DNA from: a virus
Taxonomy: Duplodnaviria > Caudoviricetes
IMG/VR virus record: IMGVR_UViG_3300042542_006078
DNA: 64,000 bases
Strand: one strand, 5' to 3'
Shown here: one piece after another, positions 28,971 to 29,843 of the stretch
Numbering within the stretch: position 1 is the first letter of the stretch
Layout of the letters: each line of letters starts with the position of its first letter
Notes under the pieces: model-generated
Seen by the model: only the letters and a program-made list of their open reading frames with translations
Databases searched by the model: none
Told to the model about the DNA's origin: nothing
Program-made: the position numbers and the translations under genes

Positions 28971-29843
28971 ATGGAATTCCGTAATTTTATTGAAAACGCA
29001 TCATTAAATGAGTGTGTGGTTGCTGGTGTGCGACTACAGGATGGTGTTGTATTGGCCAAGAATCGTGATCGTGGATACAAGGCCAATGTTGAAATAATTC
29101 ATGAATTAATTAATGGTACAGAGGTTATGTACTGGCATGATATTGATACAGATTGGTGTGAAGGGATGAATGAGTATGGTTTAGGGATGGTGAGTAGTAG
29201 TTTGATGGTGAATCAGGATGAGAAGGAAGGATTGCGTGTTATAAATGGCAAGAAGGTTCCTGACGACAAGCATAAGAAGATAGTAACAAATGAGGGCAAT
29301 AAGATAAGGCAGGCTTTGTCGCATGTTAATCTTAAAGACATGGTTCATAGCATTGTGAATGGCAAGAATAAAAAGGGTAAGAATGTTGGTCTTCGTGGTC
29401 AGACATTGGTAAGTGATGGTGTTAATTTATATGCTTTAGAAATCACAAAAGATAGCAAGGTTGTTAAAAGGGTTTCGGATGATGATTCTGTGACTGTGAG
29501 AACAAATCATGGCATATATGACAAAGAAGCTGGTTATAACAAGGGTAGGAAGAAGGAGTCTTCTCACAGCAGGATGAATTTGGCTCAGAAGAATTTGGTG
29601 GATGTTAATTTGCCAAGTGATGTTTTGGACATTTTGAAAAAAAAATATGTATCTGATCCATTTTTGAATCCTTACAGGACAAAGAGTCCATGGTTGATGC
29701 ATACGACTGGTCAAATTTTATTGGATTTGAAAAATTTGCGTGTTATGGTCAGGATGGATAAGGACGAGGGTGTATTTCGTGGTATTGTAAATAACTTGCC
29801 TATTGGTTATAATTCAAAGATCAGGGTTGTTGTTGAGCATTAA
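28971..29843 (+). CDS. Ntn-hydrolase-like protein (C45/C59-like) behind a CTS-like leader
   Basis: MEFRNFIENASLNE then CVVAG...LAKNRD, GMNEYGL, RTNHG. Confidence 0.65.
   Translation: MEFRNFIENASLNECVVAGVRLQDGVVLAKNRDRGYKANVEIIHELINGTEVMYWHDIDTDWCEGMNEYGLGMVSSSLMVNQDEKEGLRVINGKKVPDDKHKKIVTNEGNKIRQALSHVNLKDMVHSIVNGKNKKGKNVGLRGQTLVSDGVNLYALEITKDSKVVKRVSDDDSVTVRTNHGIYDKEAGYNKGRKKESSHSRMNLAQKNLVDVNLPSDVLDILKKKYVSDPFLNPYRTKSPWLMHTTGQILLDLKNLRVMVRMDKDEGVFRGIVNNLPIGYNSKIRVVVEH

Follow-up and report, generated by a model that had tools for sequence, protein, structure and literature searches.

How does an enzyme that works with a free N-terminal cysteine come by it, when its gene encodes a leader in front of that residue? 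The question is raised by a gene at 28971..29843 (+ strand, stop codon included) of the Caudoviricetes record IMGVR_UViG_3300042542_006078, a stretch of 64,000 nucleotides from a huge, uncultured freshwater phage (the whole stretch is hereafter called the window). By the list of open reading frames (ORFs) and the sequence, the gene encodes 290 amino acids (aa), and its product would be the inactive precursor of an N-terminal nucleophile (Ntn) amidohydrolase of the Cys type, with the C45/NAAA/bile-salt-hydrolase fold. The best reading, and in our judgment a probable one, is trans-activation of this enzyme by the head protease of the phage, such that (i) the 14-aa leader would be the counterpart, in the window phage, of the T4 capsid targeting sequence (CTS) and would bring the protein into the prohead core; (ii) an S77 (gp21-type) prohead protease would cut after L-N-E14 during head maturation; (iii) the cut would free the α-amino group of Cys15, which is required for Ntn catalysis; and (iv) the active 276-aa enzyme would stay in the filled head and then probably be ejected with the DNA, like the T4 internal proteins (IPs) and Alt. 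Cleavage by gp21, packaging, ejection, and enzymatic activity are steps that we infer.

Precursor, fold, and nucleophile

The precursor begins with M-E-F-R-N-F-I-E-N-A-S-L-N-E and continues with C15-V-V-A-G...K30-N-R-D-R. Its first 14 residues (28971..29012, + strand) make up the propeptide, namely a CTS-like tag, M-E-F-R-N-F-I-E, and a spacer ending in L12-N13-E14. The predicted prohead-protease site, L-N-E↓C15 (P3-P1 and P1′; the arrow marks the scissile bond), occupies 29004..29015 (+), with the Cys15 codon at 29013-29015, and the predicted mature enzyme, a Cys-Ntn hydrolase domain of 276 aa (residues 15-290) defined by the predicted structure and the invariant residues, spans 29013..29840 (+). 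No in-frame alternative start in the ORF 28971..29843 would place a Met just before Cys15. An earlier note on this DNA had described a 14-aa leader ending in LNE directly ahead of C15, which our reading of the ORF confirms, and an Ntn-hydrolase-like enzyme, which agrees with the predicted Cys-Ntn fold and with C15 on the nucleophile position.

An AlphaFold (AF2) model of the precursor, built on 32 homologues, has a predicted local distance difference test score (pLDDT) of 82.6 and a predicted template modeling score (pTM) of 0.85, with low confidence confined to the leader and one loop; the leader (residues 1-14; pLDDT ∼34) is predicted to be disordered, and a β-strand begins at residue 17. 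The predicted fold is the four-layer α-β-β-α sandwich of Ntn hydrolases. A Foldseek search with the model returned 95 matches at E≤0.001, and all 50 of the matches listed are Cys-Ntn hydrolases; VIA-align gave Z scores of 20.7 for CV2077 of Chromobacterium violaceum (3gvz), ∼20 for NAAA, 19.5 for acid ceramidase, 19 for acyl-CoA:isopenicillin N acyltransferase (AAT), and 16-18 for bile salt hydrolases (BSH) and penicillin V acylase (PVA). Residue 15 of the model pairs with AAT C103, BSH C2, PVA C1, NAAA C126, and acid ceramidase C143, and its partner in every alignment to a mature chain is the residue with which that chain begins. In the 32-sequence alignment, C15, K30-N31-R32-D33-R34, R177/N179/H180/G181, and N233-P-Y-R236 are invariant, and the spacing of N31, R32, D33, R34, N179, H180, and R236 resembles that of R18/D21/N175/R228 of BSH, such that they are candidates for the catalytic partners of Cys-Ntn enzymes (Arg/Asp ∼16-19 residues after the Cys, an oxyanion Asn, and a distal Arg). 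Given the nucleophile alignment and the Foldseek and VIA-align matches, the Ntn fold and the assignment of C15 as the nucleophile are therefore well supported by the model, and the structural relatives suggest that the substrate is a non-peptide or short-peptide amide.

At the level of sequence profiles, the protein scores below both family thresholds, with 18.4 bits (E=0.0018) against the curated cut-off of 23.2 for Pfam AAT (PF03417), and 26.2 bits against the cut-off of 85 for NCBIfam C45_proenzyme (NF040521); Pfam AAT matches 29 of the 32 homologues at E<0.01. The pro-region or alpha subunit of ∼100 residues that is a trait of C45 is absent, with 14 residues standing before the Cys, and in one homologue (P0006) the C45_proenzyme match begins at profile position 85. 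The precursor has no match in PHROGs, and a PDB sequence search (phmmer) found nothing for it, such that its PDB relatives were recovered by fold search only. On these scores, the precursor is a distant relative of MEROPS C45 / Pfam AAT and not a curated member.

These relatives bring with them an alternative in which the precursor would mature autocatalytically, by self-cleavage at E14↓C15 via an N-to-S acyl shift, as do AAT, NAAA, acid ceramidase, and PVA; P3 and P1 would then serve the geometry of self-cleavage, and activation would require no head protease, even if the leader were a packaging tag all the same. Both the fold and the weak profile matches are indeed those of autoproteolytic C45 enzymes, the scissile bond adjoins a buried strand, and the domain is internal in some relatives of 1,000-2,800 aa, where a self-cleaving module is attractive. 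However, the leader is predicted to be disordered and not docked in the cleft, and the P1 position of known self-cleaving Cys-Ntn enzymes is mostly non-acidic, with Gly as an example. AAT (C45; 2x1c, precursor; 2x1e, mature) shares the α-β-β-α fold, with a Cys nucleophile at its N-terminus (model residues 15-283 on chain residues 103-349; Z 19, root-mean-square deviation [rmsd] 2.6), but it cleaves itself at Gly102↓Cys103 and keeps its 102-residue alpha subunit, whereas the phage leader is 14 aa long and ends in Glu. The P1 residue and the disordered leader, together with the evidence from tags and site types given below, lead us to regard self-cleavage as unlikely.

The junction and the leader across the family

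To place the junction in its family, we collected homologues, of which one search gave 357 at E≤1e-3 and a representative library 435. E14 and C15 are invariant in 32 of the 32 aligned sequences, whose leaders vary in length and sequence. Among 268 family members, Glu stands at P1 in 170 (hereafter, the E type), and 169 of these 170 have L, I, V, M, or F at P3 (I 82, L 66, V 16, M 4, and F 1), with 13 different residues at P2 and leaders of 4 to 372 aa. Moreover, all 80 IMG/VR loci that were retrieved using patterns from the mature domain alone carry [LIVF]-x-E↓C. Targeting by the T4 CTS depends on its residues 4 and 7 and processing on its residues 8 and 10 (P3 and P1), and replacement of Glu10 by Asp blocks the cut (PMC9026906). 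Judged from these counts, the L-x-E ahead of the Cys is not a product of chance, and the family junction, [LIVMF]-x-E, reads as the motif of T4 gp21 (S77).

Some E-type members (L041, L045, L054, L055, L058, L059, and L063) have an N-terminal extension of 90-330 aa that contains a conserved K-I-F-T-H-T-P and still ends in [LIV]-x-E↓C; a Pfam search of this extra domain (P0121) gave no match. Among cultured phages, tblastn found the gene in Chryseobacterium phages MA9V-1 and MA9V-2 only. Two patterns run against the cellular genomes of 185,579 species representatives recovered no relative, a result that reaches only as far as these patterns and does not prove that relatives are absent.

The leader, by comparison, resembles the starts of other genes of the same phage. 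Of the 88 gene starts in the window, 11 match the pattern M-x(1-3)-aromatic-x-x-aromatic-[LIVM], as do 0 of 423 internal Met positions. Several of these starts are near-copies of the T4 CTS, MKTYQEFIAE (PMC8442874), for example M-R-S-Y-K-E-F-L-A-E (41886, +), M-K-T-F-L-Q-Y-I-K-E (52478, +), and M-K-F-H-N-W-L-E-L-N-E (47191, minus strand), and the Ntn leader is in register with the third. T4-CTS-like tags beyond the Ntn leader stand at gene starts 15983(-), 21858(-), 41831(-), 41886(+), 42847(-), 42904(+), 47191(-), 51952(+), and 52478(+), and the genes concerned are candidates for the set of packaged and ejected proteins of this phage. Several of them encode small proteins without known function.

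Four other phages that carry the Ntn gene (G005, G010, G006, and MA9V-2) were read whole, with the N-termini of G005, G006, and G010 scored by alignment against internal controls. In each of the four, the Ntn leader differs and yet copies the local tag. G005 (257 kb, complete) has a tag of the M-N-L-Q-E-S-I-R-R-I-L-R-E-E type on at least nine other genes, mostly in one cluster adjoining the Ntn gene; the tag is of the I-T-E-S-Q-L-K type in G010, of the M-K-N-L-I-R-x-I-L type in G006, and of the M-K-x-F-x-x-F-I-N-E↓S/A type in the cultured MA9V-2, where the Ntn junction (in MA9V2_239) is F-I-N-E↓C. Since each phage holds copies of its own tag while the junction is constant, the leader co-varies with the genome, whereas [LIVMF]-x-E↓C stays fixed. 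The MA9V-2 junction thus copies the end of the tag on unrelated proteins, which argues against a motif kept for self-cleavage.

In G005, the cluster (83916-91473; L092) consists of at least nine consecutive minus-strand genes that start with M-N-L-Q-E-[SN]-I-R-R-I-L-R-E-E, and it ends at the Ntn gene. Behind the common start, the bodies of these genes are unrelated, and the cluster resembles T4-like hyperplastic internal-protein loci. Such clustering (at least nine genes within 83.9-91.5 kb) could also reflect cassette shuffling, as would be the case if the leader were a tag shared for another purpose, such as translation initiation or recombination homology between cassettes, and were removed by a host peptidase or another phage peptidase. 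However, several tags in the window come close to copying the T4 CTS, which was defined by experiment, the tags end in a gp21-type motif, and the phages carry head genes of the gp20/gp21/gp23 type. We therefore hold a tag unconnected with the capsid to be very improbable.

Head proteases and the site types of the family

If the junction is written for trans-activation by a head protease, a matching protease should be at hand, and the earlier note had placed one at 24125. The gene at 24125..24811 (+) does encode an S77 (T4 gp21-type) prohead protease (Pfam Peptidase_S77, E=4.7e-25; PHROG 207, E=1.2e-48). The same note had called the leader CTS-like and its end a fit to the preference of gp21; both descriptions have gained, the first from the family of T4-CTS-like tags at the gene starts, absent from internal Met positions, and the second from [LIVMF]-x-E↓Cys, which is kept across very divergent homologues. 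Downstream of the protease lie a probable scaffold/core protein gene (24811..25710, +), the product of which is acidic and helical and has no match in a family search, and the gene for the gp23-type major capsid protein (MCP; 25742..27178, +; Pfam Gp23, E=4.4e-87).

The motif of the Ntn junction recurs within this head module. L-N-E is present at MCP residues 8-10 and in the N-terminus of the protease (residues 20-22), and the N-terminal pro-region of the MCP contains LNE (8-10), LLE (23-25), LLE (39-41), and MNE (46-48). Homology to mature T4 gp23* proved unsuited to choosing the MCP cut site among these four, as the alignment begins too late, at window residue 53. In the scaffold, [LIVMF]-x-E is found 20 times against 11.8 expected (p=0.005), whereas [KR]-x-A is not enriched. 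A 674-aa protein encoded directly 5′ of the protease (22090-24114), for which a family search gave no match, is strongly enriched in [LIVMF]-x-E, with 25 copies where 13.2 are expected, which makes it a candidate core or ejection protein that would be cut many times. Coiled-coil periodicity may contribute to such enrichment.

Beyond the window, IMG/VR records with an E-type gene yielded S77 in 8 of 14 and 5 of 12 cases (13 of 26), including both of the two records that are at least 90% complete, and MA9V-2 has S77 as well; S77 thus co-occurs with Glu-type sites. In MA9V-2 (W01; 167084-167422), G011, and G012, the S77 domain lies within longer frames (616-1213 aa), which suggests protease fusions or protease-scaffold polyproteins. 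Synteny of the Ntn gene with the head module was considered as an argument and rejected: in most relatives, the Ntn gene is >10 kb from the protease and the MCP, and because the arrangement is not general, gene position was dropped.

A second site type provides a contrast within the same family. In 64 of the 268 members, mostly very large proteins, the junction reads [KR]-x-[AGS]↓C. Besides the Ntn domain, these proteins have topoisomerase IB, RNA ligase, poly(A)-polymerase-head, HAD_SAK, and 2H domains, and their genes sit between the portal and a putative head-maturation protease. The giant proteins encoded in this position at L087 (6026-16506) and L223 (on G019; 7494-19993) also include a GNAT domain, and their domain content has the look of a toolkit for RNA repair and topoisomerase action that is packaged. 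None of 14 records of this type yielded S77, whereas homologues of the other putative head protease turned up in 5 of these 14 and in 0 of 16 E-type records; its identity as a protease is given by a PHROG match (E=2e-9) and synteny only, with an empty Pfam search. An AF2 model of this protease had a pLDDT of 44 and was unusable. The acidic scaffolds of the clade are enriched in [KR]-x-A (15 vs 4.6 and 11 vs 3.8 expected) and not in [LIVMF]-x-E.

These contrasts fit a junction that is written for the resident head protease. They also bear on self-cleavage, against which it counts that one family has two conserved P3/P1 motifs, each enriched in the scaffold of its own phage type, and that the two site types differ in the head protease found. 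In a tree of the mature domain, the E type forms a deep paraphyletic backbone, the [KR]-x-[AGS] type is derived, and starts with Met-Cys arose at least twice.

The Met-Cys state, without any leader, is present in 16 of the 268 members. One of them (L083, 226-1128) is encoded on a contig of 24% GC together with Erv1/Alr, two DSPc phosphatases, and RFC; from this gene content, the contig probably belongs to a giant eukaryotic virus resembling the nucleocytoplasmic large DNA viruses (NCLDV), and the enzyme family would then span phages and NCLDV-like viruses. Because such leaderless relatives exist, the leader probably evolved for packaging and not as a safety switch. The cut site would then have been forced to abut the Cys, as any leftover residue would kill an Ntn enzyme, and zymogen behavior, that is, inactivity until head maturation, would follow under either origin.

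The three states can be drawn together in a general rule, which we put forward as a possibility and more doubtful than not: a virus-restricted Ntn family in which the peptide before the nucleophile would be rewritten for the head-maturation protease of each carrier. Phages with S77 would have [LIVMF]-x-E, those with the other head module [KR]-x-[AGS], and giant eukaryotic viruses Met only. Under this rule, the Ntn domain of the [KR]-x-[AGS] type would head, or sit inside, giant packaged polyvalent proteins that carry topoisomerase IB, RNA ligase, CCA-adding-type, and HAD/2H RNA-repair domains. A survey of polyvalent proteins (PMC5512222) does not mention Ntn domains and leaves out such an RNA-repair and topoisomerase toolkit, and we found no description of this Ntn family in phage polyvalent proteins.

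The fused domains also inform the site of action. The protein could be packaged and cut as proposed but act in the head or at the cell envelope instead of as an ejected cytoplasmic effector, for example by clearing core peptides or by hydrolyzing wall or lipid amides. In favor of this are the structural neighbors NAAA and acid ceramidase, which cut lipid amides, and the feature-based Atlas look-alikes, which are CBAH/AAT-like 'conjugal transfer' proteins of Bacillota (0.92; a lead only). However, the protein showed neither a signal peptide nor a cell-wall-binding domain nor any association with the tail, and the fusions with RNA-repair and topoisomerase IB domains, as well as the NCLDV-like relatives, point to intracellular targets, which makes action in the head or at the envelope a slim prospect. 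The fused relatives suggest instead that the enzyme acts inside the cell early in infection.

Several observations weigh against trans-activation by the head protease. On the side of the leader and the protease, (i) some homologues have leaders of just 4-8 aa, shorter than the 10-aa T4 tag; (ii) S77 was not found in 13 of the 26 E-type records, all of which are incomplete fragments; (iii) the tree implies few evolutionary transitions, and the counts of protease type and site type are therefore not independent; and (iv) the virion protein data in the MA9V-1 paper consist of an SDS-PAGE gel only. On the side of the enzyme, (v) the closest families are annotated as autoproteolytic (C45_proenzyme, a weak match), so that self-cleavage is the default expectation; (vi) an acidic P1 residue aids autoproteolysis in glycosylasparaginase, and Glu14 could act intramolecularly in the same way; and (vii) P1′-P3′ (C-V-V) form the first core β-strand in the model, a position that may limit the access of an outside protease once the protein has folded.

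Other features of the locus are described here for completeness. A CATAAATA box at 28959..28966 (+), 4 nt 5′ of the ATG of the Ntn gene, resembles the T4 late promoter TATAAATA and is a candidate only; the window holds 12 copies of CATAAATA against 4.7 expected (0 of 100 shuffles reach 12), several of them directly 5′ of gene starts. An intergenic segment of ∼75 bp with CATAAATA at 30240-30320 is repeated at 31090-31160, upstream of ORFs 30315 and 31207, respectively, the products of which both have M-G-A-S-S-V-T-G near the start. The 30315 gene is present in L003 (5.4 kb), a variant contig of the window phage, and has no match in the interval of L004 that is bounded by its window neighbors. 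This arrangement suggests cassette exchange. Between the MCP and the Ntn gene lies a 525-aa gene (27300-28877) with a Mom/GNAT-like N-terminal domain, a TnsA-like nuclease domain, and an endonuclease VII/HNH-like zinc region at the C-terminus. It is absent from L003, where the flanks are 100% identical and the Ntn ORF follows 140 bp after the MCP, and its L004 version has only 62% identity; the 525-aa gene therefore behaves as a mobile, homing-type insertion. Residues 114-329 of the gp20-type portal (17667-20174; 835 aa) correspond to an intein splicing domain (Pfam Intein_splicing, E=2e-10). Among GenBank phages, the nearest MCP belongs to the 595-kb uncultured phage LR756511.1 (81% identity), in which a tblastn search for the Ntn gene gave no match.

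Known systems and the meaning of the proposed coupling

The closest functional parallel is T4, in which the CTS of IPI, IPII, IPIII, and Alt is processed by gp21 (Mullaney & Black 1996, reviewed in PMC9026906). Like T4, the window phage has a short N-terminal tag on unrelated proteins, ending in [LI]-x-E, as well as an S77 protease and head genes of the gp20/gp23 type. T4 loses the tag inside the prohead and keeps the cargo in the head until it is ejected, which is what we propose for the window phage. The difference lies in the consequence of the cut, which in T4 merely frees the cargo from the core, with no described case in which it creates a catalytic residue. In the window, the cut site abuts the Ntn nucleophile, and cleavage itself would therefore be the activating step. 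Engineered fusions of the T4 CTS with β-galactosidase, staphylococcal nuclease, and GFP are packaged, cleaved, and delivered into the infected cell (PMC9026906); these are man-made, and their enzyme activity is independent of the cut, whereas here the fusion is apparently natural and the activity would be tied to the cut. In the giant phages phiKZ, 201phi2-1, and SPN3US, many head and ejection proteins are likewise cut after Glu by diverged gp21 homologues (PMC5694885, PMC7411985), and our literature search found, for these systems, no enzyme with a catalytic residue created by the cut.

Among the Ntn hydrolases, the β chains of NAAA and acid ceramidase (6dxx, 6dy1, and 5u7z), BSH, and PVA (C59) superpose their Cys on C15 (Z 16-20), and all are amidases of non-peptide amides. 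NAAA and acid ceramidase activate themselves in the lysosome, unlike the proposed phage enzyme. In BSH, removal of the Met by another enzyme suffices to expose the Cys, such that only methionine aminopeptidase is needed. To our knowledge, none of these enzymes is activated by a dedicated assembly protease. The best structural match, CV2077 (214 residues aligned, rmsd 2.7; a structural genomics entry), is similarly small and without a large alpha subunit, but it is a bacterial protein without known function, and we know of no phage context for it.

A literature search found no paper that joins an Ntn hydrolase with a prohead protease, and related queries returned nothing relevant. Taken singly, CTS tagging, gp21 processing, and Ntn activation are familiar, whereas we did not find their natural coupling described; the statement of the earlier note that head maturation had not been reported to act as an enzyme switch has thus met no natural counterexample.

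If trans-activation is true, it would be the first natural example of head maturation creating the catalytic residue of a packaged enzyme, which would be inert in the producing cell, armed only in the sealed capsid, and ready for the next host. It would link T4 capsid targeting and gp21 processing with Ntn-hydrolase activation, textbook mechanisms that were previously unlinked, and Chryseobacterium phage MA9V-1/-2, as a carrier in culture, offers a direct test of it. As the conserved junction would mark the exact cleavage site, the specificity of the head proteases of uncultured phages would become readable, and the shared tags would likewise allow the proteins that huge phages package and eject to be read from sequence. 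Further, packaging with the T4 CTS could be broadened to take in cargo that is inactive until encapsidated. Should the general rule also prove true, the cleavage specificity of uncharacterized head proteases could be read from the Ntn gene alone, and capsid maturation would serve widely as a switch in trans, by which ejected effector enzymes are armed only inside the sealed head.

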